Positions 3,048 through 62,409 of a stretch of DNA of 64,000 nt are shown one piece after another (the stretch's first letter is position 1; each line of letters begins with the position of its first letter). The translations under genes were made by a program, and so were the position numbers. The notes beneath the pieces were generated by a model. The model searched no databases, was not told the origin of the DNA, and saw only the letters and a list, made by a program, of their open reading frames with translations. The DNA is from an uncultured Candidatus Saccharibacteria bacterium (lineage in GTDB: Bacteria > Patescibacteriota > Minisyncoccia > Phycocordibacterales > UBA918). The stretch lies in the NCBI GenBank assembly GCA_964353135.1, contig CAYGTV010000003.1:26718-90717 (forward strand). The letters run 5' to 3'.

Positions 3048-3091
3048 ATATATAAAATACCACGTAATTTTGTAAATGGTATGATTAATTC

Positions 3092-3676: not shown

Positions 3677-3684
3677 ACGTGCGA

Positions 3685-3738: not shown

Positions 3739-3747
3739 GTTAGTGCG

Positions 3748-3936: not shown

Positions 3937-4002
3937 TAGACGTTCACCTCCTTTCTGGAATGAGCTTACATTTATAATGTAGCACAACATCTAAAAAACA
4001 AA

Positions 4003-4028
4003 AAACTCCCTTGGGGAGTTTTTTGTTT
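4003..4028. terminator. Rho-independent terminator (bidirectional) downstream of tRNA-Thr.
   Basis: aaaaaactccc-ttgg-ggagtttttt, with A/T runs on both sides. Confidence 0.7.
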
Positions 4029-4031
4029 TTG

Positions 4032-4104
4032 AGCCAACACACAGAATCGAACTGTGGACCTCATCCTTACCATGGATGCGCTCTACCGACTGAGCTATGT
4101 TGGC
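4032..4104 (-). tRNA. tRNA-Thr (anticodon GGT).
   Basis: Reverse complement GCCAACA-TA-GCTCAGTCGGTAGAGC-G-CATCC-ATGGTAA-GGATG-AGGTC-CACAG-TTCGATT-CTGTG-TGTTGGC-U. Cloverleaf folds; CCA is not encoded. Confidence 0.85.
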
Positions 4105-4270
4105 AATATTTGGACCGTCGGTGGTACGGTCGCTATTTGGCTCAAGAACATGCGCAGCCGCGCAAACATGTCCAGGAATCACCGGCGGCCCACACTTGAG
4201 CGCAACGCGCATACATTCAACTCAAGTTGGGCTAGCATACCAAACACAGCGAAATAAATCCACAATTCTA

Positions 4271-4299
4271 TTGCAAAAAAGTTTCAAACTGGGTATACT
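4271..4299 (+). promoter_or_regulatory. Sigma-70-type promoter (TTGCAA-17 nt-TATACT) pointing at the tRNA-Asp leader.
   Basis: -35 at 4271-4276, -10 at 4294-4299, exact 17-nt spacer; ~210 nt upstream of tRNA-Asp. Confidence 0.55.
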
Positions 4300-4358
4300 C
4301 TTGCCACTTACTTTTGTAGGTAAACCAGAGTAAGCCTTCGGGTGTATGCGGACTGAAA

Positions 4359-5247: not shown

Positions 5248-5940
5248 CTATTTCCCCCCACTCTTCAATATCTCTTCTGCCCGTGCAATATCTTCTGGAT
5301 ACCCAACCGGAATCCACATTTCTTGCTCGACTACTCGGATTGGATATTTCTTTGCATACTCTTTTGTCATATCGGTATGATAAAACTCACCGTTTGTTTG
5401 AACAGTCGGCTCGTATTCAAAAATATGCTCATCAAATACAAACACTCCAGTCGACGCCAAATTAGAAGGCGGATGTTCGGGTTTTTCAACAAATTCAGCC
5501 ATCGTGCCATCTGGATGCTTGGTAACGATACCAAACCGCTCTGGAGTATCGGTCTGCAATACCAGCATTCCTCGGTCAAACGAAGTCACTCGCGCTAAGT
5601 CATTTTTCCCATGAATATCATCGGCGAACATAAAAAGAAAACGGCCTTTGATCAAATCTTTACATAGCCACAGTGCATGACCAGTCCCCTTTTGCTCCTC
5701 TTGATGAACGTAGGTGATTTTTCGACCAGCATATTCTGAACCACAGTGCTCTCTGATTTGTTCTTCTAAGTAGCCTGTTACCATGATAATTTCTTCTACC
5801 GCACTTGGTAGTGCATCGATAATATGATCGAGTAGCGCTTTGCCGTTTACTTTAACTAATGGCTTTGGAGTATGCTCTGTTAATGGTCGTAGTCTGCTCC
5901 CTTTACCTGCGGCGAGAATGATACATTGCATAGTACTCAT
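5248..5940 (-). CDS. Sugar-phosphate nucleotidyltransferase (NTP_transferase family).
   Basis: N-terminal LAAGKGSRLRPLT signature; 230 aa. Confidence 0.8.
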   Translation of the reverse strand: MSTMQCIILAAGKGSRLRPLTEHTPKPLVKVNGKALLDHIIDALPSAVEEIIMVTGYLEEQIREHCGSEYAGRKITYVHQEEQKGTGHALWLCKDLIKGRFLFMFADDIHGKNDLARVTSFDRGMLVLQTDTPERFGIVTKHPDGTMAEFVEKPEHPPSNLASTGVFVFDEHIFEYEPTVQTNGEFYHTDMTKEYAKKYPIRVVEQEMWIPVGYPEDIARAEEILKSGGK

Positions 5941-5974
5941 TTATACCATTCTCGACAGAAAAAGGTTATAACTA

Positions 5975-6301
5975 GTGTGTATGCAGCCATCTTTTAGCCA
6001 ACGTGTCTACGACCTTGTACTGACAATTCCACCAGGATATGTCACCACCTACGGAATACTGGCCAAGGCAGCCGGTGGAGGGGCGATGGCCGCGCGCAGC
6101 ATCACTAGCATTTTAGGAAAGGCACCAAACCAATCCAGTATCCCCTATCACCGGATAGTGTACAGTAACGGCACAGCCTGGCTTCCCACTGGAAACAAAG
6201 ACAAAAGAGAAAGGATAGACATGTACTCGGTTGAAGACATCACCGTCGACGACTCCGGACGCATCTATGACTTTGAAGAAAAACTCTGGCACTTTGTCTA
6301 A
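5975..6301 (+). CDS. MGMT-family DNA-binding domain protein, alkyltransferase-like. Tyr replaces the active-site Cys.
   Basis: TYGILA...IPYHRIV (PCHRV in true MGMT, PWHRV in ATL proteins); 108 aa; no N-terminal domain. Confidence 0.6.
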   Translation: MCMQPSFSQRVYDLVLTIPPGYVTTYGILAKAAGGGAMAARSITSILGKAPNQSSIPYHRIVYSNGTAWLPTGNKDKRERIDMYSVEDITVDDSGRIYDFEEKLWHFV

Positions 6302-6321
6302 AGTGTTTTACAATAAAGCAT

Positions 6322-6885
6322 ATGTCACTTCCAACCCATGCCGAAGCTGGAGTATTACTCGAACAGTACGTTACCGACCCATACCAACGCTTTCATGCGC
6401 TGATGGTTGGTACTGCCATGAAAGGCTATGCCGAAAAACTAGGCGAAGATACCAAGTTATGGTTTATGACCGGCTACTTGCATGACATCGACTACGACCA
6501 GTACCCGACCGAGCACCCAGGACCGTCTCTTGAATGGTTTAAAGACTGGGGTTACCCAACAGAACTAATTCATGCAGTCGAAGCACACGCCAATGGGTTT
6601 AACGGGTTCTCTACCCAGCCGCAATCACAGTTAGCAAAGGCGCTCATTGCTTGTGATGAAATTTGCGGAATCTTTTATGCCTACCAAAAACTAAACCCAA
6701 TTCCGTTTAGGAAAATGAAAGCTACATCAATCAAAAAACGTCTCAAAGAAGAACGGTTTGCCCCCGGAATTGATCGTGCCCATATCTACAACGGTGTAGA
6801 AGATTTTGGCATCACGATTGACGAACATGTAGACAATCTGATTGAGTTCTTTGCAGATTTGGATTCTCCAGTTTTAAATTCTTAG
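6322..6885 (+). CDS. HD-domain phosphohydrolase.
   Basis: HALMVG...YLHDIDY H...HD pattern; 187 aa. Confidence 0.7.
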   Translation: MSLPTHAEAGVLLEQYVTDPYQRFHALMVGTAMKGYAEKLGEDTKLWFMTGYLHDIDYDQYPTEHPGPSLEWFKDWGYPTELIHAVEAHANGFNGFSTQPQSQLAKALIACDEICGIFYAYQKLNPIPFRKMKATSIKKRLKEERFAPGIDRAHIYNGVEDFGITIDEHVDNLIEFFADLDSPVLNS

Positions 6886-7602
6886 TTCTAGCGGAAGCGA
6901 AGTCAGCTGCTTGTATCCATTCTCAGTGATCACAAACAGGTCCTCTAGGCGGACGCCACCGATGTGTTTGTAATACAGACCTGGCTCGACAGTAACAACA
7001 TCCCCTACCTGCAAGACATCCTCGCTGGCTGCGCCAAGCGAAGGTGCTTCGTGGACATGTTTCCCCAAACCATGGCCAACAGTATGAACAAATCCTTCAG
7101 CATATTTAAACAGTGTTCCAGTTCCTGATGTTTTGTATCCCAGCGACTCAAATACCTCTACAGATGCATTGTGAACGTCACTACATTGGACACCCGGACC
7201 AAGCATCGCTACAGATTTTGCATGGGCTTGTTTGACAGCATCATACATAGCGAGCAATTCGGGCGATGGTTCACCTAAACAAACCGTCCTGGTCATATCT
7301 GCATAAAAACCGGATTCTATTGACCTTGGATAGATATCAATGACAATCGGTTGATTCCACTCGATCACACCCGTTCCCATATAGTGTGGTTCATGAGTAC
7401 CGAGTCCACCAGCCACAATCCTACCTTCTGGTGATTCGCAGTTGTGTTCTTCTAGAGTTCGATCGAGCACTGCTTTAGCATCTTCTGAATTAGGACTCTC
7501 TGTTTGTTGCAGATACGAAATAACAGCAGTCATAGCTGACTCAGCCGCAGCAACACTTTGATTAATTGCCGTTATATCTAATTGGGTTTTATTTCGTGAC
7601 AT
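6874..7602 (-). CDS. M24-family metallopeptidase (MetAP / Xaa-Pro aminopeptidase-like catalytic domain).
   Basis: Pita-bread metal-ligand pattern ...DIYPRSIESGFYADMTRT... HTVGHGLGKHVHE ... VEPG; 242 aa. Confidence 0.75.
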   Translation of the reverse strand: MSRNKTQLDITAINQSVAAAESAMTAVISYLQQTESPNSEDAKAVLDRTLEEHNCESPEGRIVAGGLGTHEPHYMGTGVIEWNQPIVIDIYPRSIESGFYADMTRTVCLGEPSPELLAMYDAVKQAHAKSVAMLGPGVQCSDVHNASVEVFESLGYKTSGTGTLFKYAEGFVHTVGHGLGKHVHEAPSLGAASEDVLQVGDVVTVEPGLYYKHIGGVRLEDLFVITENGYKQLTSLPLELRI

Positions 7603-7605
7603 ATT

Positions 7606-8250
7606 TTACTGTGCCTTGGTTGCTAAAATCTCAACCCATTTAACTTCTTCACGCCCATACTTATCTCCTACAAATCGTTGCTCTGTAACTAAAAAACCTG
7701 CTAATTTCAGCATTTCATTTAATCCCTCTTGCGTGTAGTAGCGAAAGAAACGCTCATGGCCTGACAGAGAGTCACTCACTACTTCTGTTTCTTTATCACC
7801 TGTTTGCAACTTCACTTTCACAAACAATAACCCGTTCTGTGGCAAAACTCGATTAAACTCTTTCAATGCCTGAAGCACCTCTTCTTTCGTTTCCAAATGA
7901 ACTAAAGATGCTGTCGCAAACACTCCATCAAAAAACCTGTCTGCAAAGGGTATAGCTAGAAAACTACCTTGTATAAATTCAATCCCAGGGTTCCTCTTCC
8001 TTGCTTCTCCTAGTAAACCAATTGATATATCCAACCCTACTGGTACTGCCCCTCTATCAAGGAATAGTCCAGCATGCTTACCTGGACCACATCCTGCATC
8101 GAGGATTCTTGGGTTATCTGACAATTTTGACATAAACCAATCAACTGAATCAGATGACATGTTTGCATATGTTTTAGATGCATATTCATTAGCATTACTG
8201 TCGTACCACTCAATTGTATCTTTGAAATCCATATTAGTAGAGTATAACAA
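7606..8250 (-). CDS. Class I SAM-dependent methyltransferase.
   Basis: Motif I ILDAGCGPGKH; 214 aa. Confidence 0.8.
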   Translation of the reverse strand: MLYSTNMDFKDTIEWYDSNANEYASKTYANMSSDSVDWFMSKLSDNPRILDAGCGPGKHAGLFLDRGAVPVGLDISIGLLGEARKRNPGIEFIQGSFLAIPFADRFFDGVFATASLVHLETKEEVLQALKEFNRVLPQNGLLFVKVKLQTGDKETEVVSDSLSGHERFFRYYTQEGLNEMLKLAGFLVTEQRFVGDKYGREEVKWVEILATKAQ

Positions 8251-8366
8251 AACTAATCTTCTGAATAGAATTTTCTAAAAAAACGCCCGGAGGCGCTATA
8301 CATGTAGGAGCAAGAACAAATGAAAAAAGAAACCAGAAATGGCCCGCCGAGGCGGACCATTTGTTT

Positions 8367-9554
8367 TTAAGTACTTTTTGGTTTTTGAAGAATTGGCAAA
8401 CTCTCAAACATCGGAACTTGCTCTCCCGTAAACGGAGCAAGCAAACTCCTTGTTTTTTCATGCCTCTTTGTGGCACGAGCGAGTTTGGTGGGTATGATTA
8501 ATGACGGCTTGGTATCATGAATCAGACCCTGCACCAGCGTCTCTGGACTGGTTCGCTCACGCAACCAAAACTGTCCGATGTCATAATAGGTGCCAGCAGG
8601 CACACCATACTTACACCAAGGAGCAATGGCGCAGCCACCACAAGAGCGATCATGTAGTCGGCGATACGCCGGAACGGCCCAATCAACATCGTGCGGCACA
8701 CGCACCTTTTTATCCTTGATAATACGACCGTCGCCCATCTCAACATCCATGTACGTGACACGAGACTTTGTATACGGAGCCTTACGACACAACTTTAGCG
8801 ACCAGAGCCAAATCACATCACCATATTCAACAGCGGTGAGACTAAACTCTCTTTGCAGCCACTTTGCCAACTCAATTCCGAGGTGTTCTACCGCCTCGAA
8901 TCGTATACGCACAGTTCCAAACACAACTATCATCATAGTCGATAGATATACACGTAGATGATGAAAATCAACCGGAGCAGAAAGTTCATTGTGAGGAATC
9001 AGTCCAGTGGCAGCCAAAAAGTAGCTCAGCATACTAGACATTTTCATCTGAAAACCTTTAAACCCACGATATCCGTTACGGCCAATGATCCTGTCATACA
9101 GCTCTTGCTCAGAGACAGTACCTTTGAAGATATTTCTTGGATCTGCATCCCAATCTTCCAACAGAACTATTGAATTGTCGAACCAAAAAACACCAATTTG
9201 ATCAAATCGCCAAGAGATGTACCCATACAAAATCAAACCAATTTCCCAAGGATTACTTTTCGCGACTTGCACAGGATCAAACAACCAACGTTCATTTTTC
9301 CAAAGTCGAATGAGTTGTTTGAAAGCATCACTACTGACAACTGTGCCACGCATATACAAACATGCGTAGAAGAGGAACAAAGCGAATTGCAGTGGTTTTG
9401 ACGCAATTTCTTTTGGAACCAAATTTTGCGGCAAATCAGTCTCTGGCCGATCGTACGGATACTTACCTCTATGATAGAGGTCAAGCATAGGCTCAAACGC
9501 TTCTCGCGCTCTGGCCTTGTCTATTTTTCCTTCTATCATCTTGTTTTCTCCCAA
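8367..9554 (-). CDS. Hypothetical 395-aa protein. A C-terminal CxxCx5C cluster resembles the EndoIII-type Fe-S loop; a DNA-glycosylase-like role is only speculation.
   Basis: ...HDRSCGGCAIAPWCKYG... with no other recognisable domain; intrinsic terminator hairpins at 8283-8300 and 8338-8369 follow the stop. Confidence 0.45.
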   Translation of the reverse strand: MGENKMIEGKIDKARAREAFEPMLDLYHRGKYPYDRPETDLPQNLVPKEIASKPLQFALFLFYACLYMRGTVVSSDAFKQLIRLWKNERWLFDPVQVAKSNPWEIGLILYGYISWRFDQIGVFWFDNSIVLLEDWDADPRNIFKGTVSEQELYDRIIGRNGYRGFKGFQMKMSSMLSYFLAATGLIPHNELSAPVDFHHLRVYLSTMMIVVFGTVRIRFEAVEHLGIELAKWLQREFSLTAVEYGDVIWLWSLKLCRKAPYTKSRVTYMDVEMGDGRIIKDKKVRVPHDVDWAVPAYRRLHDRSCGGCAIAPWCKYGVPAGTYYDIGQFWLRERTSPETLVQGLIHDTKPSLIIPTKLARATKRHEKTRSLLAPFTGEQVPMFESLPILQKPKST

Positions 9555-9772
9555 GTTTTACATTTGACCTTCCGAGTATCTATTCTCCTGATTTACTTAA
9601 TAAAGTCAAGAAAGGCAGCAGCAATGTCGGCTTGGGTTCTTTTATATCTGTAGAGACGACACATTTGACAAAAAGTAAACTAATATGTTTTCCATACTTT
9701 TTGCTAGAGGCACGCGACTGGACATGCGATACTGAGTGTAGACACCTTTACAATTACATAGTGGAGCTACCC

Positions 9773-36078: not shown

Positions 36079-37611
36079 ATGATGTACGAGACCCTCAAAA
36101 CCCACTTCGGCTACGACAAATTCCGCCCGTTGCAGGAGGAAATTGTGACACGGGTGCTCGAGAAAGAAGACTGTCTGGTACTGATGCCCACCGGTGGCGG
36201 CAAGTCCCTGTGTTTTCAGCTGCCGACCCTGATGCAAGACGGCCTGACGATTGTTATTTCACCGCTTATTTCCCTGATGAAGGACCAGGTCGATGCGCTG
36301 CGCCAGAACGGTGTCAACGCCGCGTACCTCAATAGTTCACTCACCACCGACGAGAAAGTACAAATCCTACGCGACGTCACCGACGGCACCACCAAACTGT
36401 TGTACATCGCCCCCGAGCGACTGGGTGTCCCACAGTTTGCTGCCCTCCTGCACAAACTGCCGATTAGTTTATTTGCCATCGACGAGGCACACTGTATTTC
36501 CGAATGGGGTCATGACTTTCGACCTGACTACCGCAACCTGAACCAGCTACGGACCAACTTCCCCTCCATTCCCATCATTGCGCTGACCGCGACCGCTACC
36601 CAAAAAGTGCGCGACGACATCGTCAAACAGCTCGACCTCCCCAAGCCACACATTTTCACCTCCAGCTTTAACCGCGATAACCTCAGCTACGAAGTGTTAC
36701 CGAAAAAAGAATCGTTTGGGACTATCCTGTCTTTGATCGAATTACACAGAGAAGAAAGCGTCATCATCTACTGCTTCTCCCGCAAAGATACCGAGAGCTT
36801 GGCTAAGAAATTAAATGACCAGGGACACAACGCCGGCACGTACCACGCCGGACTGACCGCCGATCAGCGCCGCGAGAACCAGGACAAATTCATCCGGGAC
36901 GAGATCCACATCATGGTCGCGACGATCGCGTTTGGCATGGGGATCGACAAACCCGACGTGCGCCTGGTGATCCACCACAGCCTCCCCAAATCAATCGAAG
37001 GCTACTACCAGGAAACCGGCCGCGCTGGCCGAGACGGACTCCCCTCCCGTTGTGTGTTGCTGTTTTCAGTCGCGGACAAATTCAAACAAGACTTCTTCAT
37101 CAGCCAAATCAGCGACCCCGAAGAAAAACGCCAAGCGCAACACAACCTCGACCAAACCCTCGACTATGGCCGACTCGATTCCTGCCGCCGCAAATTCCTC
37201 TTGCAGTATTTCAACGAAGACTACACCACCGATAACTGCCAAAATTGCGACCGGTGTATAGAATTCGAGGCCGTGGTGCCAGCCAAAACCACCACAAAAA
37301 CTCAGGCGTCCCACGCCGTCAGCACTCCCGGTTATTCGTACCTCGCTGAACGTGACGGACACACCAACAACGCCTCGGATACAGACTATGACACCGACCT
37401 CTTCGACATCCTCAAGCAACTCCGCCTCCGCGAAGCCAAACGCCTAGGCGTCGCCCCCTACATCGTCTTTGGCGACAAAGCCCTGCGCGGCATGTGTGTC
37501 ACCAAACCAACGACCAAAGCAGCCTTCCTAAAAATCAACGGCGTCGGCGACAAAAAGCTAAAGAAATTCGGCAAGAAGTTTATGGACGCGATTAAGGAGT
37601 ATGAGGGGTAA
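36079..37611 (+). CDS. recQ: ATP-dependent DNA helicase RecQ (helicase + RQC zinc module + HRDC).
   Basis: Walker A MPTGGGKS, DEAH (AIDEAHCISEWGHDFR), Zn module CRRKFLLQYF...CQNCDRC, HRDC tail (LFDILKQLRLREAKRLGVAPYIVF); 510 aa. Confidence 0.9.
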   Translation: MMYETLKTHFGYDKFRPLQEEIVTRVLEKEDCLVLMPTGGGKSLCFQLPTLMQDGLTIVISPLISLMKDQVDALRQNGVNAAYLNSSLTTDEKVQILRDVTDGTTKLLYIAPERLGVPQFAALLHKLPISLFAIDEAHCISEWGHDFRPDYRNLNQLRTNFPSIPIIALTATATQKVRDDIVKQLDLPKPHIFTSSFNRDNLSYEVLPKKESFGTILSLIELHREESVIIYCFSRKDTESLAKKLNDQGHNAGTYHAGLTADQRRENQDKFIRDEIHIMVATIAFGMGIDKPDVRLVIHHSLPKSIEGYYQETGRAGRDGLPSRCVLLFSVADKFKQDFFISQISDPEEKRQAQHNLDQTLDYGRLDSCRRKFLLQYFNEDYTTDNCQNCDRCIEFEAVVPAKTTTKTQASHAVSTPGYSYLAERDGHTNNASDTDYDTDLFDILKQLRLREAKRLGVAPYIVFGDKALRGMCVTKPTTKAAFLKINGVGDKKLKKFGKKFMDAIKEYEG

Positions 37612-37656
37612 CTATGACTCCAAATTAATACAACAAAAAATAATTTATCAACGTCT

Positions 37657-39384
37657 CTATTCGAGAAAATCTATAATTTCTTTGAAATTGTCTTTTGTCT
37701 CCTGGTCAATGAAATTTTCATCTTGGTTACATTTATCATAAAAATGCTTCGCAAAAATAAATTTACTGATCTGCTCAACATTTGCAACCATATTTTTATC
37801 AGGTAGAAATTCTTTCTCATAATCTGAAAGAATCGAAGTCACAATATTTACAGACAAGAAATCCTCTATACCCTTTTTTCCATCTGGCTTTAAGACTGTG
37901 TTCTTATACAAAAGATCTTCTGCATCACCAAAAAAGTTTTTCTTTATTTTATTTGCAGCCTTAGTTCCTTGAGAATCATCATCAACTAACACTTTTGCAT
38001 CAATACCCCAGCCATAAAGAATAGCGAATATATTCGGACACTGATCAACACCATTTGACGGAATCACTGAACACCCCTCTTCCAAAATAGGTTTCAAATA
38101 AAAATATTCTGTTATTCCTTCTACAATTAATGTCTTTTTGCTATTAAAAGGATCTGTTAAGGTCACAAGACCTAGTGCTGATTTAATTGGAGCGAGTGAA
38201 TCAAGAGATCCATTAGATGTAACTAGTGCAGAAATTGATTTGAACAGTGAACCTTTGTCATTTCTGTCAACAAGTAGCAGACGCGAAAAATCAACATTTT
38301 CTTTTCCCAATAAAATAGGTTGGTGTGTACTATAGATAATTTGTATACCAGAGTTTTTTGCCAATTCTTCTATAACATCTTTAACGTCTTGCTGTGCGAT
38401 CTCATGAAGACCTTGACCAGGTTCATCAATTAACAAAATTAAACCTCTAGAATCGAGCTCAACCTCATGTGCGCGTAATCTCAAATTAAAACCAGTAAAC
38501 CAGCGAAAACCTTGAGATTTTTGTGATATACGTAGCGGTTTTTCCTCCCCCTGACTTATGAAAAAATTTACTGTTGAGTTTTCACTATTACCCTCCTGGT
38601 GATTTATTTTTATATTATATTTATAATCAACTTGCTCATTTGATATAACCTGGTTCCAATATCCATTCAACGACTCAGCCGCCTGCCTCTCGACTCTCTG
38701 CTCTTCACTAGCTCTTTTTTGGTCGGATGTACTTGGACTCATCAACTCGGCAAAATCGATCTTGTACACTGTTTCAAAATCTCGAATCGCCTGATTGGTG
38801 TTTACTTCACTCTTAGTTGCCTTGCCGGGAAGATTATTTTCGGTAAATGAAGAATAAAAAACCATGGTTGGTCTCATTTTAGAAAAATACGTGTATGGCG
38901 AAAAAGCTTCAATTTCCACCATCTCTCCCTCTGAAGCTTCCTCACCTTCTGGTAACTCATTTAGCGACTTGTCATATTCTGCAACCAACTTTTTTAGTTC
39001 TTGAAAATTTATCCAGCTAAAACTATCAAAATCATCTTCGTCAGTTTCGCCCCTGACGAAAGTGAATCCATTTTTTCTTACACAGTCTGCAATATCGTTA
39101 TTGGTATCCTCCTTTAGTTTTTGGTATTCAGAGTCATTTAGGTAAAAAGTGCAATCAACCCTTGGATGCTCATCCATTCTCCTATCTTCATCTTCAAATG
39201 AGTCATATGACCCCTCTTCAAAGAATTTTAATGCGCTTAAAAAAGAAGTTTTTCCGGACTCATTCTGTCCAGCCAAAACAGTAATCAAATCACCTTTCGA
39301 TAAGTGAACCCATCCTGTATCTTGAATTGATTTAAAATTTTGTATTCTGACCTTGCCGAGTACCATAAACCAAAGTATACCCAC
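37657..39384 (-). CDS. OLD-family nuclease (N-terminal ABC/AAA_15 ATPase + C-terminal Toprim).
   Basis: Walker A LAGQNESGKTSFLSAL; Walker B/D-loop LLIDEPGQGLHE; Toprim TLIVEGITEYFYL ... VLVDDDSQG; 575 aa. Confidence 0.8.
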   Translation of the reverse strand: MGILWFMVLGKVRIQNFKSIQDTGWVHLSKGDLITVLAGQNESGKTSFLSALKFFEEGSYDSFEDEDRRMDEHPRVDCTFYLNDSEYQKLKEDTNNDIADCVRKNGFTFVRGETDEDDFDSFSWINFQELKKLVAEYDKSLNELPEGEEASEGEMVEIEAFSPYTYFSKMRPTMVFYSSFTENNLPGKATKSEVNTNQAIRDFETVYKIDFAELMSPSTSDQKRASEEQRVERQAAESLNGYWNQVISNEQVDYKYNIKINHQEGNSENSTVNFFISQGEEKPLRISQKSQGFRWFTGFNLRLRAHEVELDSRGLILLIDEPGQGLHEIAQQDVKDVIEELAKNSGIQIIYSTHQPILLGKENVDFSRLLLVDRNDKGSLFKSISALVTSNGSLDSLAPIKSALGLVTLTDPFNSKKTLIVEGITEYFYLKPILEEGCSVIPSNGVDQCPNIFAILYGWGIDAKVLVDDDSQGTKAANKIKKNFFGDAEDLLYKNTVLKPDGKKGIEDFLSVNIVTSILSDYEKEFLPDKNMVANVEQISKFIFAKHFYDKCNQDENFIDQETKDNFKEIIDFLE

Positions 39385-39401
39385 AATGTCATGTTTTTCA
39401 A

Positions 39402-39710
39402 TTAGAAATCAAGCATCTTCTTAAAAGCTCTAGCAATTTTAATTGCATCAGTCTCTACAATTCTGTTTGGAATATGGATAGTATGGAAGCCATCTTCAGT
39501 GGAGTAAGCGTCTCTTTTAAAATCATCGGCCATCTGTATATGATCAGTGTAGTGGTTTGGCCCATCTACTTCTATATAAATTTTTCCCTTGGGAATATAG
39601 ATGTCAATATGCTTATGTTTGTCATAATACTCAAGCTTTGTTTCAACACCAACTGAATTCAGAGCCTCATTAAGCATGGCTGCATGCTTGGTTGGTTTTG
39701 ATTTATACAT
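39402..39710 (-). CDS. DUF559 / Vsr-like (PD-(D/E)xK fold) small protein, 17 nt upstream of the OLD gene and co-directional with it.
   Basis: IDIYIPKGKIYIEVDGPNHY...DDFKRDAYSTEDGFHTIHI matches the DUF559 core (E.DG..H ... R...L...G). Confidence 0.55.
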   Translation of the reverse strand: MYKSKPTKHAAMLNEALNSVGVETKLEYYDKHKHIDIYIPKGKIYIEVDGPNHYTDHIQMADDFKRDAYSTEDGFHTIHIPNRIVETDAIKIARAFKKMLDF

Positions 39711-39760
39711 CCAAACATTGTATCAAAAACTAGTATCATCCTGACTTAGATTGTCATCAC

Positions 39761-39835
39761 CGAATTTAAACACCCAAAAATAACCAAAAAAGCCCAAGGT
39801 CAGTACCTCGAACTTTTGAATGAGTTTATTGCAAC
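39761..39835 (+). repeat. Conserved intergenic element, copy 1 of 6.
   Basis: cacccaaaaataaccaaaaaagcccaaggtcagtacctcgaacttttgaatgagtttattg. Confidence 0.8.
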
Positions 39836-39907
39836 AGATTGATTTTCTGACATAAATATGGCTTTATACAGTTAGAAAAGTAACCAATTCGGCTAAAAGG
39901 ATTCGCC

Positions 39908-40336
39908 ATGAACCGTGAACTTGAAACGAGCGACCCAACTAAAGACGTTCCGCAAAAACCGAAACCAGATTTGTTTTGTACATTTTGCGGCAAAAGCCGG
40001 CACGAAGTAGATAAGCTCATCGCTGGACCTGTGTGCTACATCTGTGACGAATGCGTTGATTTGTGTAGATCAATCTTGTACAAGCCACCTGAGACACCCA
40101 GTATAGCGATGGACTTTGACTTGCTCCATGCGTTTCCTGAGAGCTTTCGTTTCTCTGGCGCAGTCACAATTCTCAAGCGCGATTCTCTTGATACGAAGAT
40201 TAGTGAGAGGTATGTGAATTTTTATAACCTGACTGCAGCAGAACTTACTGTGTTTGTCTCAAATCATTCAGTCGGGTTTAACACCCACGCCACAAAAATA
40301 AACCTCTGTGATATACATCCAGAGACGACAAGATAA
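39908..40336 (+). CDS. Orphan protein with N-terminal ClpX-type C4 zinc ribbon and an unknown C-terminal domain.
   Basis: [32 protein letters not shown] matches the ClpX Zn-binding domain; no AAA+ domain. Confidence 0.55.
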
Positions 40337-40413
40337 CTGTGGTAATCAAAACAAAAAACCGGACCTTGAAACAGGCCCGGTTTTTGCATTATCAAAAACA
40401 AAGGCGTCATCAG

Positions 40414-40487
40414 TGAATTCGCCCACCCAAAATAACCAAAAAAGCCCAAGGTCAGTACCTGGGACTTTTGCATGGGTTTATTATGCC
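40414..40487 (+). repeat. Conserved intergenic element, copy 2.
   Basis: cccacccaaaataaccaaaaaagcccaaggtcagtacctgggacttttgcatgggtttattatg. Confidence 0.8.
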
Positions 40488-40503
40488 TAGTTAGAGAAAC
40501 TGA

Positions 40504-41424
40504 CTAAGCTACAAAATTGTCGATGTTGGCTTTGGTAAGTTTTAGTGCTCGTCCACGGTTTTCTTTGGTAAAGAAACCGGTGTGGGGAGTTACGTAAAAG
40601 TTTGGTAAGGCTAGAAATTTTTCTTTGCACTCTTTCCATTCTTCTGACTGATTTACGTCTGACCAACATTTTACGTCTACCCTCTCAACCAGAAAATCAT
40701 ACAGCTCGTTAATTTTTAGGACTTCAAATGTTCCCGGAATAAGAATTACACCGTCCTGGTTGAGGTTGACTAGATAGTCTTTCCCAAAACTATCTCGGGT
40801 TTCCAGTGTAATAGCAGACGTAATTGCCAACACATCTGTGTCTGTAGTTAGTTCTGCAACCGGTACAGATTGATACTCCACGTCTTTCTCATTTTGGCTG
40901 GCGTATTTTATAGACGCTCCAAAGAAGCTGCAAATTTCTGCAAACCTAGTACCGATTGAACCAAGTCCAAAGATCCCTACATTTTTAGAAGCAATTTCAC
41001 TTCCTTTAAAACCAGCAAAACTTTCACCACCTTCTTTTGCATACGTCATTGCTTCTGGAGTTTGGCGGATAAGGTTCAGGAGCATGTTGAGCATCAGTTC
41101 GCTAACACCATCGGTTGCCTGACCGTTGATGTTATCGATTGTAATATTGTTTTCTTTCAAAAATTCAAGATCAATCATCGACATACCAGTCCAATCGATA
41201 GCAATGTATTTTAATGTGTCCAAATCATAGTATTCGTTTTTGAAATCATCAAACACTCCTACTAGAAAGAAATCGACCCCCTTGAGATGATCAGCTGTGA
41301 GAACATTCTGATAATCGTCAGTTGCAGTGATAGTCGTCACCTCTTCGGCGTATTGTTGTGCCATTGTGGTCAGATCGTCAGACCCTTCAAATTCGTATAC
41401 CAACGCTTTCTTAAATGGTTTCAT
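40504..41424 (-). CDS. D-isomer-specific 2-hydroxyacid dehydrogenase family protein.
   Basis: NAD-binding GIFGLGSIGTRFAE; start moved to MKPFKK (41424) so the gene does not overlap element copy 3. Confidence 0.75.
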   Translation of the reverse strand: MKPFKKALVYEFEGSDDLTTMAQQYAEEVTTITATDDYQNVLTADHLKGVDFFLVGVFDDFKNEYYDLDTLKYIAIDWTGMSMIDLEFLKENNITIDNINGQATDGVSELMLNMLLNLIRQTPEAMTYAKEGGESFAGFKGSEIASKNVGIFGLGSIGTRFAEICSFFGASIKYASQNEKDVEYQSVPVAELTTDTDVLAITSAITLETRDSFGKDYLVNLNQDGVILIPGTFEVLKINELYDFLVERVDVKCWSDVNQSEEWKECKEKFLALPNFYVTPHTGFFTKENRGRALKLTKANIDNFVA

Positions 41425-41430
41425 ATTTTC

Positions 41431-41490
41431 CAGTATACCAAAAAAGCCCAAGGTCAGTACCTCGAACTTTTGAATGAGTTTATTGTGATG
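41431..41490 (+). repeat. Conserved intergenic element, copy 3.
   Basis: accaaaaaagcccaaggtcagtacctcgaacttttgaatgagtttattgtgatgg. Confidence 0.8.
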
Positions 41491-41496
41491 GAGTAA

Positions 41497-41922
41497 TTAT
41501 GACCAATCTGACAACTCAATTGGTTCACCTGACAAAATCAGCGGGAGTTTCTCATCTGGGATGATGCGGACTTTAAACTCGTTTGCACCTGCACTATGCA
41601 GTTTTACCAACCGGTGAAGACCATCGAGAATCATGTATTTACCGTGATTAAAATAAACGTCAATCGGATACGAAGTATCCGCCTGATCTACAGCCAACTG
41701 CTCTTTGCTGGTTCCCTCTTCTTTTTCTAGTACTTCGCGTGGAGTTACGGTATATCGCTCGCCATTGTCATGCTCCCAAAACGGACAATCCAAGTGCCAT
41801 TCTAGGTCAGCGAATGTAAGTGTGGTTACCGGCAGATCAACCGCCCACAATTTCTCCTCCTCCCAGTTACCGAAGTCAAGACCAACGGTGTTCCAATCAA
41901 ACTCTTTCGGGTCTTGTTTCAT
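41497..41922 (-). CDS. ParB/sulfiredoxin-like nuclease domain protein.
   Basis: KYMILDGLHRLVKL matches the ParB-N (DGxHR) core; 141 aa. Confidence 0.45.
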   Translation of the reverse strand: MKQDPKEFDWNTVGLDFGNWEEEKLWAVDLPVTTLTFADLEWHLDCPFWEHDNGERYTVTPREVLEKEEGTSKEQLAVDQADTSYPIDVYFNHGKYMILDGLHRLVKLHSAGANEFKVRIIPDEKLPLILSGEPIELSDWS

Positions 41923-41928
41923 ACAATT

Positions 41929-42483
41929 TTAATTAGCTGACAGCTCCCAAACTTTCTCAGGAACCCACTTACCATCTACTTTCTTTAGGACTGCAATATT
42001 GTCGAATTGCAGTTTCATATCTAGCTCCGGCAGTGTATGCAGGTAGTCCCACGTTTCTTTGAAATCAAACGGTTTGAGTGCTGCCATTGCGACAGTAGCG
42101 TGCAAGTCTCCTTCTATTTCATCATACTCGTCGAACGTCATTCCTTCTATATCGCGCATTGCGGTCATCACCGCACTAACTGTATCCAGCATTTTCTGCG
42201 ACGGTTCAACATCTACAAAAATAACCCCTTCACCAAAGTGGTTGTATCCGTGCAAACGATACGGACTTTGTTTATGCGTTTCAATAATTTTTTCTATTGC
42301 TGCATAAACAGCCTGTACCCCAACTTCATCAAGTTCAAACCAACGTTTGATAGTTAGATGTGGAACAACACGATCATGCACCGGAAACGCATCAAGTTTT
42401 TCTACCAGACTGCGAGTGATATTTTCATGTGCTTCTTTTGCTTCACCACGTATGAGGTGAACAATAATTCTTCGGTTATCCAT
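41929..42483 (-). CDS. 2H phosphoesterase superfamily protein (LigT / 2'-5' RNA ligase-like).
   Basis: Two H-x-T/S-x motifs (PHLTIK ... LHATVAM) at the expected spacing; 184 aa. Confidence 0.6.
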   Translation of the reverse strand: MDNRRIIVHLIRGEAKEAHENITRSLVEKLDAFPVHDRVVPHLTIKRWFELDEVGVQAVYAAIEKIIETHKQSPYRLHGYNHFGEGVIFVDVEPSQKMLDTVSAVMTAMRDIEGMTFDEYDEIEGDLHATVAMAALKPFDFKETWDYLHTLPELDMKLQFDNIAVLKKVDGKWVPEKVWELSAN

Positions 42484-42506
42484 TGTCTATGAGTATAGCA
42501 ATGATT

Positions 42507-42577
42507 CAACCACCCAAAAATCACAGCGAAAGTCTAATGTCAGTACTTCGGGCTTTTGCATGAGTTTTTTATTGCGG
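42507..42577 (+). repeat. Conserved intergenic element, copy 4 (diverged).
   Basis: caaccacccaaaaatcacagcgaaagtctaatgtcagtacttcgggcttttgcatgagttttttattgcgg. Confidence 0.7.
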
Positions 42578-42610
42578 TTAAGTAATAAACTCTTGCGATA
42601 TAATACAGAC

Positions 42611-43210
42611 ATGATGAGTAAACTATACAAAGGAGAAAAATCTTCTATTTTGTCGGCTTTGACATTTAATGATGGTGCATTTTGGGGTGCGGATATGTTT
42701 GCCGGAGTAGTGTTTGCACTTTATATAACCCAAAATATTCCCGGCGGGTCTGCCATCCATGTTGGTCTTGTATTTGGACTATATCGACTAATTCGTGCAA
42801 TTACTGCAATTCCTATTGGTCGTTTTTTAGACAAACATCGTGGACACTTGGATGAATACTACACCCTAATGACCGCTGGCGGTATTACCGGATTGGTATA
42901 CATTACACTTTTCTTTGCAACCGAATTGTGGCATGTGTACCTTGGTATCAGCTTTATCGCAATTGGTCACGCGTTAAATATTGGAGCGTGGAATGTATTA
43001 TTTTATGGAAATGTTTCAGAAGAAATACGCGGGCAAGCAATTGGTACGTACCAAATGTTTACGCAAATTATTTATGGATTAGCAATCATAATCGCCGGTT
43101 TCGTCGGAGAAATATTTGGATTTGAATGGACATTACTTTTTGCTGGCATAGTCACTCTGTTGAGCAGCCTCATTATGTGGTTTATATACGGAAGCAGAAA
43201 TAAGATGTAA
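42611..43210 (+). CDS. Half-size MFS-like membrane protein (six transmembrane helices); possibly a fragment.
   Basis: Resembles the C-terminal six-helix half of an MFS permease; start at ATGATG (42611) preceded by TATAAT. Confidence 0.45.
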   Translation: MMSKLYKGEKSSILSALTFNDGAFWGADMFAGVVFALYITQNIPGGSAIHVGLVFGLYRLIRAITAIPIGRFLDKHRGHLDEYYTLMTAGGITGLVYITLFFATELWHVYLGISFIAIGHALNIGAWNVLFYGNVSEEIRGQAIGTYQMFTQIIYGLAIIIAGFVGEIFGFEWTLLFAGIVTLLSSLIMWFIYGSRNKM

Positions 43211-43220
43211 ATATAGGATC

Positions 43221-43279
43221 ACCACACCAAAAAGCCCCGGGTCAGTACTTAGGGCTTTTACATGTGTTTATTGCGAGGA
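43221..43279 (+). repeat. Conserved intergenic element, copy 5 (best hairpin).
   Basis: caccacaccaaaaagccccgggtcagtacttagggcttttacatgtgtttattgcgagg; stem aaaagccc/gggctttt. Confidence 0.8.
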
Positions 43280-43290
43280 ATCAATTCTAG

Positions 43291-44628
43291 CTACACTAGA
43301 TGTTTTCGATATGCAAACACCAGCAACACTCCAAACCCAAAAACAAGAAAGCCAAATATAAGCGGTGCGGTCACCCCAAAACTAGCTGCAATTAGCCCAG
43401 CAAAAATTGATGGCAGGGCTTGACCAAGTGACTGCACACTAGCGTCGACTCCAAGTGCAGCTCCCTGGCTTTCTTTGTTGGCTTTGGCTGATACTACCGC
43501 TGTGACCGCTGTCCTCCCTACTGCGTTTGCGGCCGCAAAGAACACTATGATGAGCAGCAGCTCCCAGGTATTAGTACTCAGTGCAATCAAGAGCAAGGTG
43601 ACAGCTAGTGTGGCAAACGAAATATACAAAAGATTTACTTTTTGTACGAATTTATCGGCAAGTGGAACTAAGAGAACCTGAAACGGGATAATCAGAAAGC
43701 CAACATAGAAAAAGAAGAAACCAATTTGACTTTGACTATATCCCAGCCGACTGACCAAATATACTCCCAAGAAACTGGTAAACAAAGTAAAGCCAAAAGA
43801 GTAGACAAACGATAGTGAATATATACCTCTGGTTGCTGTGTTTGAAAACGCTCGCCCAATATTTCGCACCGCTCGAGCTGGCCTGATTTCGATAGTTGTG
43901 TCCATTGGTGATGTCTCGGGAAGAAACATATAAATAAACACCACATTCAAAAGAGATAAGATTCCTGAAATAACAAACACAAATGGCGCGCCAAAGAATG
44001 GCAGAATACTTGGATCAGAAAGTACCCCACCCAGCAACGGACCAAACATAAATCCAAACCCGAGTGAAGCACCAACTAAACCAAAGTTCTTGGCCCGGTC
44101 TTTTGGTTCAGAGATATCAGCCGCTACGGCTTGAGCAATCGCAATCGAACCACCGGTAATTCCGTCAAACAGACGAGCACCAAACAAGATACCTAAGCTA
44201 GCCACGAGAGCACCAAACGCAAATACAAAATTAGAAAGTCCTGTGCCTAAAATCGCTAGTCCTAAAATTAACCGCCGACCGTACCGGTCAGACAATTGTC
44301 CAAAAATTGGATTGGCAAAAAATTGACCAAAGGTATAAATAGCGAACAGCAACCCAAGCAAAATATATTGCATCTGTTGCGTCGTGTCTGGCGAGAGCAC
44401 ATAGATACTTGAATTTGGTTCGGTAAACATCAGCGGCAGTATAGGTATCACCAACGAAAAACCGATTACTTCAATAAAGACCGTCGCGCAAATCAGGTAG
44501 ATCGTATTGTTAGTTTTTCTCAAGACTGCAGTATAGCAAAATAGACAGAAAACGTACTGTTTTGAATCAGCAGTAACGGGTTTGACTAGCAAACACACTC
44601 TTTCACAACCGATATATACAAAAACCAA
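43291..44628 (-). CDS. MFS transporter (drug:H+ antiporter-like).
   Basis: Motif A GQLSDRYGRRLIL; about 12 transmembrane helices; 445 aa. Confidence 0.8.
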   Translation of the reverse strand: MVFVYIGCERVCLLVKPVTADSKQYVFCLFCYTAVLRKTNNTIYLICATVFIEVIGFSLVIPILPLMFTEPNSSIYVLSPDTTQQMQYILLGLLFAIYTFGQFFANPIFGQLSDRYGRRLILGLAILGTGLSNFVFAFGALVASLGILFGARLFDGITGGSIAIAQAVAADISEPKDRAKNFGLVGASLGFGFMFGPLLGGVLSDPSILPFFGAPFVFVISGILSLLNVVFIYMFLPETSPMDTTIEIRPARAVRNIGRAFSNTATRGIYSLSFVYSFGFTLFTSFLGVYLVSRLGYSQSQIGFFFFYVGFLIIPFQVLLVPLADKFVQKVNLLYISFATLAVTLLLIALSTNTWELLLIIVFFAAANAVGRTAVTAVVSAKANKESQGAALGVDASVQSLGQALPSIFAGLIAASFGVTAPLIFGFLVFGFGVLLVFAYRKHLV

Positions 44629-44668
44629 AAGTCAGCACCTTGAGCTTTTATATAGATTTATTGCGGTT
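44621..44668 (+). repeat. Conserved intergenic element, copy 6.
   Basis: caaaaaccaaaagtcagcaccttgagcttttatatagatttattgcgg. Confidence 0.7.
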
Positions 44669-44676
44669 ACATCATC

Positions 44677-45075
44677 CTACAAACAGCCTCTTCCGCGGAA
44701 TATTTCAGTGGCACTTGGTGTGTCACCGGCTTTGATTTCTTCTACCCGCGCGGCGCCGATGGCTTCGATAAAGCAGGCTTCTTGATCAGGGGTAATTTGC
44801 GAGGGCAAGCTAGCTGGATCAATCCCAAACGTTTCAAGTGCGGCTTCCTGACCAGCGTTTAACATTGGGTTGCTGTCAGCCGGTGCGCTAGCTGACTGAT
44901 TGGCAGGTTCACCAATTGCTGCTTCCCCGCTAGTAACAGTGCTTATAGTTTCTTGCATCGTTGTACCCGAACCACCTTGGAACGAGACATATAGCAGTAC
45001 TCCACCCAGGGCAATTAAAATACACAGGAAGATAACCCCGAGTCCGACGAAAAATATAGTTAGCGTTTTTTTCAT
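44677..45075 (-). CDS. Small secreted/anchored protein, hypothetical.
   Basis: Signal anchor MKKTLTIFFVGLGVIFLCILIALGG; 132 aa. Confidence 0.35.
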   Translation of the reverse strand: MKKTLTIFFVGLGVIFLCILIALGGVLLYVSFQGGSGTTMQETISTVTSGEAAIGEPANQSASAPADSNPMLNAGQEAALETFGIDPASLPSQITPDQEACFIEAIGAARVEEIKAGDTPSATEIFRGRGCL

Positions 45076-45109
45076 ATAGTCAGTATAGCAATATTACCTA
45101 TGCAGCACA

Positions 45110-45409
45110 CTATTTGAAAAATTCCCACACCACGTACACCGTCGCGAGGTTTTGCAAAATCAGTAGTGGAATCCCGATTTTGAAATACCATTTTTTGGTT
45201 TTGTGTCGAAAGGCCAGCATGCCAAGGTATACCCCAACACTACCAAACACCGTTGCCATAAAAAACATTCTCCCTTCGGAAATGCGCTGGACATTGTGCC
45301 CGCGAGTAGACCGACGTTTGTCATTCCACATGACTAGAAACGCCCAGAGGTTGACTAGTGCTAGAACTGCAACTAGTACCTGCCCAGTTGGTGTAGCTAG
45401 TAGCTGCAT
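45110..45409 (-). CDS. DUF1294 membrane protein.
   Basis: ...WNDKRRSTRGHNVQRISEGRMFFMATVFGSVGVYLGMLAFRHKTKKWYF matches the DUF1294 pattern. Confidence 0.55.
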   Translation of the reverse strand: MQLLATPTGQVLVAVLALVNLWAFLVMWNDKRRSTRGHNVQRISEGRMFFMATVFGSVGVYLGMLAFRHKTKKWYFKIGIPLLILQNLATVYVVWEFFK

Positions 45410-45411
45410 GA

Positions 45412-46659
45412 CTAGAGCACGAGTAGACTAGGAGCAAATACCAGTAGCGCACCAAGGGCTGCCATCAGCACCCCACCGATCAGTAACGACAGTTGGGCGT
45501 ATTTTTGTCCACTTGCTTCTAGCTTGCTGTAGCCCCAAATTGCTAGCCCAAAGACAATGACGTCATCAACCATGTATCCCAGCGTATACACCAAGATGTA
45601 CCACTGCCGTTCCATAAAGCTCAACATATTGAGTTCAAGGATTTTGGTATAGGCCTGTGGAATCCCAATTGAACATGCAAACTCGATCACGTTAACCGAA
45701 AACGCAATCAAAATAATCGCGCCAATAGTACCCAATGTCAGTGGCTGATTAACAATCGCTTTGAACCGGTTGATAGTTTTTGATTGTTGCTCGATATTAC
45801 TAATGTCACACACTAGTGCGGCGTCACGGTTTTTGTACCACCGGTACAGGAAAAATAGTCCCCCACCAAGAGCCAAGAACCCAACCAGTGGAGTCACAAT
45901 CTGATCGAGTGCTACAAAGTCCCAGGTTTTGTACCAAACGTTGAGGATCAAATTGTACATAATCCCCTCAGCCAAGATAAATAGTCCTGCTAGGAAAATC
46001 ATTTTCTTGCGACTCCCCGCCTGCGAGAGCAAAACCAAGAACGTGATCAGTACCCACATCGCACATGGGTTAAATCCATCTATTACACCCAATAAGGCTG
46101 ACAGTGTGAAAAGTGAAAATGATTTGAGGTCAACCACTCCGACAAAGGGCAGATCAAATATATACCCGGTCTCTTCCCCAGCGTCACACATCATATCGGT
46201 ACACCCACCACCTAGCTGTACGTCTTGCACGGGTGCCCGATCGAGATGCTCTTGGGGCGTACGGATGTCGGTATTAGCGGCGGCTGCTATCGCGGCTTTG
46301 ATACTGGCACCTGTGGTTTCTGGACCATTGAACCCCAGGATCACTCGCTCCCCAATGACTGTCAATGGAGTCACTTTTGACGTACCGTGTTTTTCTGCAA
46401 TAGCTGAAAACAGTCGTGCCGCCTCGTCGTCAGTGATTATATTTAAGTACTCGTACGCAATTCCTTCCTCTTGTAGCCACTCATGCTGTTTTTGACAAAA
46501 CCCACAGTCATCTCGACCCAGCATATATACAACCGCTGTATCAGTCGCACCTATCGCTTCTGGCTCTTGAGCGACAACTGTCGGTGTCACCATTACACTT
46601 GAAAAAATAACAGCACCAAACAGTAAGACCAACGAGGTGGCACGTAACAATGTATTCAT
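45412..46659 (-). CDS. Membrane protein with N-terminal glutaredoxin/thioredoxin-like domain (CGFC) fused to a CcdA/DsbD-like transmembrane thiol-disulfide domain.
   Basis: DCGFCQKQHEWLQEEGIAYEY (Grx CxxC); transmembrane domain with conserved Cys in GFNPCAMWVL. Confidence 0.55.
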   Translation of the reverse strand: MNTLLRATSLVLLFGAVIFSSVMVTPTVVAQEPEAIGATDTAVVYMLGRDDCGFCQKQHEWLQEEGIAYEYLNIITDDEAARLFSAIAEKHGTSKVTPLTVIGERVILGFNGPETTGASIKAAIAAAANTDIRTPQEHLDRAPVQDVQLGGGCTDMMCDAGEETGYIFDLPFVGVVDLKSFSLFTLSALLGVIDGFNPCAMWVLITFLVLLSQAGSRKKMIFLAGLFILAEGIMYNLILNVWYKTWDFVALDQIVTPLVGFLALGGGLFFLYRWYKNRDAALVCDISNIEQQSKTINRFKAIVNQPLTLGTIGAIILIAFSVNVIEFACSIGIPQAYTKILELNMLSFMERQWYILVYTLGYMVDDVIVFGLAIWGYSKLEASGQKYAQLSLLIGGVLMAALGALLVFAPSLLVL

Positions 46660-60710: not shown

Positions 60711-60877
60711 TGTCGTCTTATTTCTACTCATGCTATCGCCTTCTGACACATCTGGGCTATAGTTAACTGCATGAGGGGCAATATCAAGATGTCGCACGTT
60801 ACGACATACCGCGCTGCTACCACACGTTTACTCGGCTACCAATAAGATAGCACATTTAATTAAATTGTCAATAGATG

Positions 60878-60964
60878 CGGAGAGTAAGGGATTCGAACCC
60901 TTGGAACCCGTAAAGGCTCGGCAGTTTAGTAAACTGCTGCTTTCGACCACTCAGCCAACTCTCC
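60878..60964 (-). tRNA. Class II tRNA, Ser-like (discriminator G, long variable arm) with apparent anticodon ACT (unusual).
   Basis: Reverse complement GGAGAGT-TG-GCT-GAGTGGTCGAA-AGC-A-GCAGT-TTACTAA-ACTGC-CGAGCCTTTACGGGTTCC-AAGGG-TTCGAAT-CCCTT-ACTCTCC-G. The anticodon arm is a perfect 17-nt palindrome. Confidence 0.6.
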
Positions 60965-62279: not shown

Positions 62280-62324
62280 AAAATGCAACAAAACCTAAAG
62301 ACATGCTTTAGGTTTTGGCATTTG

Positions 62325-62409
62325 CGGAGACGAGAGGATTCGAACCTCCGGGGGCGTGAACCCCACTTCCTTAGCAAGGAAGCACGATAGACCACTCTGA
62401 CACGTCTCC
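62325..62409 (-). tRNA. tRNA-Ser (anticodon GCT), class II.
   Basis: Reverse complement GGAGACG-TG-...-CTTCC-TTGCTAA-GGAAG-TGGGGTTCACGCCCCC-GGAGG-TTCGAAT-CCTCT-CGTCTCC-G. Confidence 0.85.

Follow-up and report, generated by a model that had tools for sequence, protein, structure and literature searches.

Two adjacent genes for predicted nucleases

We analysed two adjacent genes in a 64,000 nt stretch of DNA (the window; positions 26,718 to 90,717 of contig CAYGTV010000003.1, GenBank assembly GCA_964353135.1) from an uncultured Candidatus Saccharibacteria bacterium. One encodes a large protein of the OLD family, with an ABC-type ATPase and a Toprim domain, and the other a protein of 102 aa related to DUF559 and Vsr. 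A preliminary description, made from the sequence alone, had read them as a co-transcribed pair forming a candidate anti-phage system. Both open reading frames (ORFs) were indeed found on the minus strand, at 37657..39384 and 39402..39710, and the tandem arrangement that it had described, with the small gene upstream of the OLD gene, was confirmed. The features of the locus are collected in Table 1.

Table 1. Coordinates in the window of the two genes, their conserved motifs and the adjoining features
Feature	Coordinates	Strand	Details
OLD-family nuclease gene	37657..39366	-	569 aa, ATG start at 39366 (probable); N-terminal ABC ATPase, C-terminal Toprim
Walker A / P-loop AGQNESGKTS	39244..39273	-	K45 invariant
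Walker B ILLIDEP and D-loop GQGLH, together ILLIDEPGQGLH	38404..38439	-	D320, E321 and H327 invariant
H-loop YSTHQ	38320-38334	-	H354 invariant
Toprim core, TLIVEGITE to LVDDDS	37972..38133	-	E422, D468 and D470 invariant
TLIVEGITE	38107-38133	-	E422
LVDDDS	37972-37989	-	D468 and D470
E507	37858-37875	-	Invariant; C-terminal helical region
K541	37756-37770	-	Invariant; C-terminal helical region
Intergenic gap	39367..39401	-	35 nt
Sigma-70-like TTGAAA-N16-TATACT	39401..39374	-	Inside the gap; ends 7 nt before the OLD ATG
Minimal Vsr/DUF559-fold endonuclease gene (predicted)	39402..39710	-	102 aa
Extended -10-like TGaTACAAT	39717..39725	-	Ends 6 nt before the small-gene ATG; taken directly from the sequence
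First 68-nt repeat copy	39774..39843	.	Terminator-like minus-strand hairpin 39817..39788, upstream of the small gene

The OLD-family protein

The longest ORF of the OLD gene, of 575 aa, begins with a GTG at 39384. The seventh residue of this ORF, a methionine, was invariant across the family alignment and the NCBI call is 569 aa. The GTG start is therefore probably wrong, with the conserved ATG at 39366 as the start of the gene. The gap between the two genes thereby becomes 35 nt, in place of the 17 nt given in the preliminary description, and a -10-like TATACT falls 7 nt upstream of the start, at leaderless spacing.

All of the OLD hallmark motifs quoted in the preliminary description were present. 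The protein matched AAA_15 (5.8e-22) and OLD-like_TOPRIM (PF20469; 24.5 bits, cutoff 23.2) in Pfam, and its top PADLOC model was Old (1.6e-26), with secondary matches to AriA (2.2e-24, the ATPase part, residues 7–358, only), GajA (2.3e-15) and PtuA. The residues given as invariant in Table 1 were so in a 36-sequence alignment of the family. The ORF is full length and the catalytic residues are all intact. In an AlphaFold 2 (AF2) model of the protein (pLDDT 85.2), some 70 aa at the C-terminal end (residues 506–574) were helical, and this region bears the invariant K541. When this model was used in a Foldseek search, the top match was the OLD protein of Thermus scotoductus (TsOLD; 6P74, 4.3e-13), followed by the GajA structures 8U7I/8X5I (about 6e-13), so that the fold search did not separate Class 1 from Class 2 of the OLD family. 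In a sequence-profile search, 6P74 was also the best solved-structure match.

The features that characterise OLD-family proteins, namely ABC-type ATPase motifs, a Toprim glutamate and DxD, and an OLD-like overall fold, are thus present together. Class 1 is defined by a single gene with no UvrD-like helicase directly downstream (PMC7049728, PMC10568477, PMC12392090). As this is the configuration found here, the best reading of the 569-aa protein is a divergent, stand-alone OLD-family nuclease of Class 1 type, its activity being predicted. Its relatives came mainly from metagenome-assembled genomes of the Patescibacteria/candidate phyla radiation.

The small Vsr-like protein

Taken alone, the 102-aa protein gave a marginal match to DUF559 (PF04480; 21.0 bits, cutoff 20.6, E 3e-4). 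PF04480 was present in 23 of 38 homologs, however, and a profile of the family matched PDB 3HRL (5.7e-4) as well as PvuRts1I and 3R3P. An AF2 model (pLDDT 91.1) was matched by Foldseek to 3R3P, the catalytic domain of I-Bth0305I (2.4e-4, TM 0.68), to 3HRL (NGO0050; 2e-3), to PvuRts1I and to Vsr (1VSR). The homologs, the profile match and the fold matches make the assignment to the DUF559/Vsr fold sound despite the marginal score, and the PD-(D/E)xK-type fold proposed in the preliminary description therefore held. Residues D36, E47, D49, G50, H53, D63 and R66 were invariant in the family, forming the motif D...ExDG..H...D..R, and the order of the fold was helix, three strands, helix, strand, helix. 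Judged by the model, the protein is a bare catalytic domain of the Vsr/EDxHD type without a DNA-binding extension, and a predicted endonuclease. In PADLOC it gave weak matches to mREase_II and DpdF.

Two roles known for proteins of this fold were considered and rejected. Very-short-patch repair of the dcm-vsr kind was set aside as there was no DNA methyltransferase gene among the scanned neighbours in the window and no methyltransferase cluster recurred beside the homologs. A homing endonuclease of the EDxHD or I-Bth0305I type was set aside as the 102 aa make up the catalytic domain alone and the contig is cellular. Distant relatives of the small protein were seen in IMG/VR phage contigs (L171–L190) as the C-terminal domain of ORFs of 250–330 aa, several of which can occur in one contig (three in L180, two in L188). 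The architecture of these phage relatives is consistent with homing endonucleases of the I-Bth0305I type.

Linkage of the two genes in other genomes

The OLD alignment was scanned against the GTDB species-representative genomes, which gave 71 loci, and the small-protein alignment against JGI metagenomes, from which 80 of 223 relatives were kept. The exact-match contexts of the closest homologs and viral contigs were also included, and the six-frame ORFs of every locus were searched with hidden Markov models (HMMs) of both families. Upstream sequence of 500 nt or more was available for 72 OLD loci, none of which contained a relative of the small gene. For 43 small-gene loci, 1.8 kb or more of downstream sequence was available, and in none of them was there an adjacent OLD gene. 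A relaxed, unfiltered HMM search (E<=10) for DUF559-like ORFs in the OLD loci returned noise only, scoring below 9 bits, and the pair did not occur among the viral loci examined. A weak OLD-like ORF lay 5.6 kb from the small gene in one small-gene locus (L164). A 102-aa ORF (2675–2983) in L005, a restriction-modification (R-M) locus with an OLD gene, was considered as a possible small-gene homolog and rejected, as it showed no similarity. No conserved partner of OLD was detected in the 72 homolog loci.

The sole second copy of the pair (L165) was 100 % identical to the window over 2604 nt. It is therefore from the same organism, and the adjacency represents a single event. The closest relatives of each gene had other neighbours. 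The OLD homolog P0002 (74 % identical, found in four contigs) was preceded by divergent mobile-element genes for a serine recombinase and a Rep-like protein, while P0004 (64 % identical) was located between tiny ORFs and a SET-domain gene. Downstream of the small-gene homologs P0124 (86 %) and P0122 (75 %) were genes for proteins of 199/271 aa and 217/119 aa, respectively, which are unrelated and have no informative Pfam family. At the DNA level, similarity to relatives covers each of the two genes individually and breaks off at its own borders. Across the independent genomes examined, the two genes are not conserved as neighbours. The preliminary description had itself tied its proposed OLD plus DUF559 system to linkage elsewhere, which these counts do not bear out.

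Contexts of the relatives

In about one-fifth of the 71 OLD loci, clustering of the neighbours and Pfam searches placed the OLD homolog inside an R-M operon, with overlapping or near-overlapping start and stop codons. The order HsdS-OLD-HsdR (type I) was found in L005 (OLD at 5319–7019), L017 (8001–9680) and L019 (6939–8651), and the order Mod-OLD-Res (type III-like) in L028 (OLD at 8001–9728) and L034. In L022, the OLD homolog (2469–4319) followed a GmrSD/HNH gene, and in the remaining loci it was solitary. That relatives are embedded in R-M operons of types I and III is a form of guilt by embedding and argues strongly for a putative defence role of the clade. This OLD clade, recurrently coupled translationally within such operons, could constitute a distinct R-M-embedded class, and its R-M wiring bears on the question of what triggers single-gene OLD proteins.

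Among the relatives of the small gene, a same-strand ORF started no more than 150 nt downstream in 37 of 58 non-redundant loci, and these ORFs were essentially all mutually unrelated. Those assigned by Pfam included ribosomal protein L10 (rplJ), GreA, YchF, a carotenoid synthesis protein and a phosphodiesterase, with a CYTH protein, a methyltransferase, Mrr_cat, DUF3800 and PycTM among the others. A conserved operon in which the small gene leads a variable effector could be ruled out, as the downstream genes include rplJ, greA and ychF. The unrelated downstream genes are the signature of a promiscuously inserting single-gene unit and not of a dedicated partner. The small gene most likely encodes a nuclease that is selfish or associated with mobile elements. 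In five loci, a gene of the XRE type with a helix-turn-helix (HTH) lay 47–50 nt upstream of the small gene in divergent orientation.

The two families do share locations. The backbone of a small element, made up of a serine recombinase, a Rep-like (Viral_Rep-like) protein, a 73-aa protein and a 282/291-aa protein (the SerRec-Rep element), was found in L001–L004 (2274–7725 in L001), where it lies directly upstream of the closest OLD homolog in divergent orientation. It had the same placement beside small-gene homologs in L110 (690–4844) together with L100, which are contigs that share an overlap of 153 nt (99.3 % identity), in L149 (4533–8309) and in L099 (66–3863), and was partly present beside small-gene homologs in L086, L087 and L167. 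Between the OLD-side and small-gene-side backbones, the serine recombinases were 75 % identical and the Reps 61–66 %. An OLD gene was downstream in none of the SerRec-Rep copies that carry the small gene. Shared neighbours were not limited to this element. An HsdR was 75 % identical between the OLD locus L005 and the small-gene loci L009 and L109, a GmrSD-like gene was 73 % identical between the OLD locus L022 and the small-gene locus L127, and XRE-type HTH genes were also common to the loci of both families. Neighbours with at least 50 % identity were common to 12 of 82 small-gene loci and eight OLD loci, and all were mobile-element or defence genes. One family of small integrative or replicative elements, the SerRec-Rep elements, thus carries OLD and DUF559 genes as interchangeable cargo.

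Composition and possible promoters

The GC content of each gene was 0.356, compared with 0.447 for the window, and GC at third codon positions (GC3) was 0.295 and 0.33. On this basis, both genes appear to be AT-rich imports, which possibly arrived together. Neither a Shine-Dalgarno-like sequence nor a terminator was found in the 35-nt gap, and no Shine-Dalgarno-like sequence was found ahead of either gene. The -10-like elements at leaderless spacing (Table 1) suggest that the two genes have separate leaderless transcripts, with TGaTACAAT possibly being the small gene's own leaderless promoter.

Interpretation of the tandem

Because the two genes were not neighbours in any of about 130 related loci apart from the identical L165, we regard the locus, with fairly good confidence, as a side-by-side placement of two independent nuclease modules, each a single gene, and not as one system. 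The domains, motifs and folds, the absent conserved linkage and the shared contexts were observed directly, and we infer the enzymatic activities, the defence role and the route by which the genes became adjacent. The ABC-type ATPase head of the OLD protein, which probably dimerises, would control or license a two-metal site in the C-terminal Toprim domain. If the protein resembles TsOLD, P2 Old and Vc OLD in its action, this site (E422, D468/D470, E507 and K541) would nick or degrade invading or replicating phage or plasmid DNA, and the protein would work without a dedicated partner. The small gene moves as a single-gene unit, and its relatives lie beside unrelated genes that include both housekeeping and defence genes. 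The adjacency would then reflect chance, a shared insertion hotspot or cargo pool, or possibly co-delivery on one element from which the backbone has since gone; no remnants of the SerRec-Rep backbone were detected in the window by tblastn (E<=1).

Some of the evidence weighs against the independence of the two genes. They are on the same strand, the 35 nt that separate them contain no terminator, and their GC content is identical (0.356). The tandem may have arrived together and the genes may be co-transcribed, as would be expected of a newly formed operon. The idea of separate transcripts is suggestive only, since promoter-like matches were no commoner in the region than in shuffled sequence (8 compared with 8.4 expected). 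In addition, the absence of the pair elsewhere is drawn from about 130 informative loci, which is not an exhaustive census.

The same proximity, with identical GC suggesting co-acquisition, is what recommends the reading in the preliminary description, a lineage-specific two-gene anti-phage system in which the small nuclease would be a second effector or sensor, as GajB is with GajA. It is also in keeping with this that both proteins are nucleases of defence-associated folds, the smaller with weak matches to mREase_II and DpdF, that the two families tend to turn up in common slots of mobile elements and defence loci, and that the pairing is, as had been claimed, undescribed, no publication joining the OLD family and DUF559 having been found. 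We nevertheless consider such a system improbable. The two genes were linked in 0 of 72 and 0 of 43 loci and the closest relatives of each were without the other, while the one further instance is from the same organism and a promoter-like site lies inside the gap. Of the SerRec-Rep copies, at least six have the small gene but no OLD gene, and in one the reverse is true, so that each gene is maintained without the other. A variant seems to us just as improbable, in which the tandem arose very recently in this lineage as a module of two nucleases that act together, put together in the cargo slot of a SerRec-Rep element. If true, a young module of OLD and a mini Vsr-like protein would represent a fifth genetic context for OLD proteins. 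In the preliminary description, the domain identities and the tandem layout were thus correct, but the functional partnership of the two genes was not upheld.

The OLD gene might instead be the orphan of an R-M operon that has lost the type I or type III subunits with which its product would normally work, in which case it may be inactive or decaying. The translational coupling of OLD between HsdS and HsdR or Mod and Res in about one-fifth of the related loci makes such an origin conceivable, but it is very unlikely, as the majority of homologs lie outside R-M operons, the two nearest (74 and 64 %) among them, the catalytic residues are intact in a full-length ORF, and tblastn detected no R-M genes or remnants in the window. 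An ordinary Gabija, retron or PARIS system with a partner that had been missed would account for the secondary PADLOC matches to AriA, GajA and PtuA, the first of which covers the ATPase part only, and for the near-equal fold scores of GajA and TsOLD. This explanation is effectively refuted. The gene directly downstream of OLD encodes a convergent RecQ, a superfamily 2 helicase with an HRDC domain and not a UvrD, PcrA or Rep, and no superfamily 1 helicase was present among the six window ORFs of at least 430 aa. In PARIS, the ATPase and Toprim are split, whereas here they are fused in one ORF. For a retron, a reverse transcriptase was lacking among the scanned neighbours and no Rfam family rose above noise in 37000–45500. 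The preliminary description had likewise noted no UvrD, retron or PARIS context, and these scans agree with it.

The reading as two independent modules carries a caution, namely that a tandem of two defence-flavoured genes in one genome should be called a system only where the linkage recurs, which it does not here. The locus then comprises a divergent OLD protein of Class 1 type, from a lineage that has been little sampled, and a mini-endonuclease whose gene is promiscuously mobile.

Surroundings of the two genes

The recQ gene downstream of OLD (36079–37611, plus strand) is canonical, encoding DEAD, Helicase_C, RecQ_Zn_bind and HRDC domains. With a GC content of 0.541 and a GC3 of 0.70, it is a strong outlier from the window in the opposite direction to the OLD and DUF559 genes, and may itself have been horizontally acquired. 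RecQ scored very high on the PADLOC DpdF and PsyrT (RecQ-like) models, and no Dpd or PsyrA partner was seen for it. As a Gabija-like helicase partner of OLD it was rejected, given its convergent orientation, its GC content and its recurrence near only one of about 77 OLD loci. When ten neighbouring proteins were examined with PADLOC, RecQ alone gave matches, and those were to RecQ-like helicase models only. The other flanking genes encode an Na+/H+ exchanger, a protein with a ClpX zinc finger only, a 2-hydroxyacid dehydrogenase, a LigT-like protein and major facilitator superfamily (MFS) transporters. The immediate surroundings are not a recognisable defence island, and the defence-island setting that the preliminary description had proposed is accordingly weak.

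The protein with the ClpX zinc finger is encoded by a 142-aa ORF (39908–40336, plus strand), which is divergent from the small DUF559 gene across the first copy of a repeat. It has a C4 zinc finger of the ClpX type (1.2e-15) and an uncharacterised C-terminal part, with no AAA+ domain. The repeat, of about 68 nt, is present in six copies, at 39774–39843, 40426–40494, 41431–41497, 42514–42582, 43218–43285 and 44607–44674. All are in one orientation, with one copy per intergenic gap regardless of how the genes on either side are oriented, and they delimit cassettes of 0.65–1.4 kb. The first copy forms the border to this repeat-punctuated region and is outside both nuclease genes. Each repeat contains a 13-bp hairpin in which changes are mostly one-sided, giving G.U pairs on the minus strand, and the flanks CAATAAAC..CAT and TTTTTGG are conserved. 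An identity as integron attC sites or as a known RNA family was not supported, with no integrase at either end, no Rfam match and weak covariation. The repeat was absent from the other approximately 190 fetched loci. It may act as a recombination site or in the manner of a terminator. Elsewhere in the window, ARAGORN detected, at 60877–60964 (minus strand), a tRNA-Ser whose anticodon, ACT, is unusual for bacteria, as well as a normal tRNA-Ser(GCT) at 62324–62409.

Comparison with known systems

The small protein resembles NGO0050 of Neisseria gonorrhoeae (3HRL) and other Vsr/EDxHD folds in its length of about 100 aa, its fold order and its D...ExDG..H...D..R motif, but is only 16–17 % identical to these structures. 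Unlike I-Bth0305I and PvuRts1I, it has no DNA-binding or modification-reading domain, and, unlike Vsr, no dcm-type methyltransferase is found among the scanned neighbours of its gene.

Gabija GajA, a Class 2 OLD protein, has the same two-domain architecture and fold as the OLD protein in the window. Here, however, there is no GajB/UvrD-like gene, and the GajA models (2.3e-15) were far below Old (1.6e-26). The Class 1 proteins P2 Old, TsOLD, Vc OLD of Vibrio cholerae and Escherichia coli YbjD likewise have no UvrD-like helicase gene downstream. The OLD protein shares with TsOLD the D-loop and H-loop histidines, and the Toprim E, DxD and E together with a basic residue; E276, H283 and H310 of TsOLD are equivalent to its Walker B, D-loop and H-loop residues (PMC7049728). 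Identity between the two was only 14 % in the fold alignment, and was very low to all characterised members. They also differ at the C-terminus, where TsOLD has no helical bundle and uses R487 (PMC7049728), whereas the AF2 model of the protein in the window places K541 in the helical region 506–574. Class 1 proteins lack the helical domain at the C-terminus, or helical insert in the Toprim, that marks Class 2, and to which this region may or may not correspond.

Several OLD or related ATPase-Toprim proteins encoded by single genes, namely P2 Old, Vc OLD and HEC-04, are able to defend alone (PMC10568477, PMC12392090, bioRxiv 10.1101/2024.01.29.577857). HEC-04 (Payne et al. 2024) is likewise a fused ABC ATPase-Toprim protein that acts as a single-gene defence, and was found through guilt by embedding in Hma systems. 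It was not among the 25 best PADLOC matches listed for the OLD protein, and the likeness is architectural only. Unlike HEC-04, the OLD gene in the window is embedded in nothing. Reviews describe Class 1 OLD genes as isolated and not near other defence genes, whereas the subfamily to which this gene belongs is often embedded in R-M operons.

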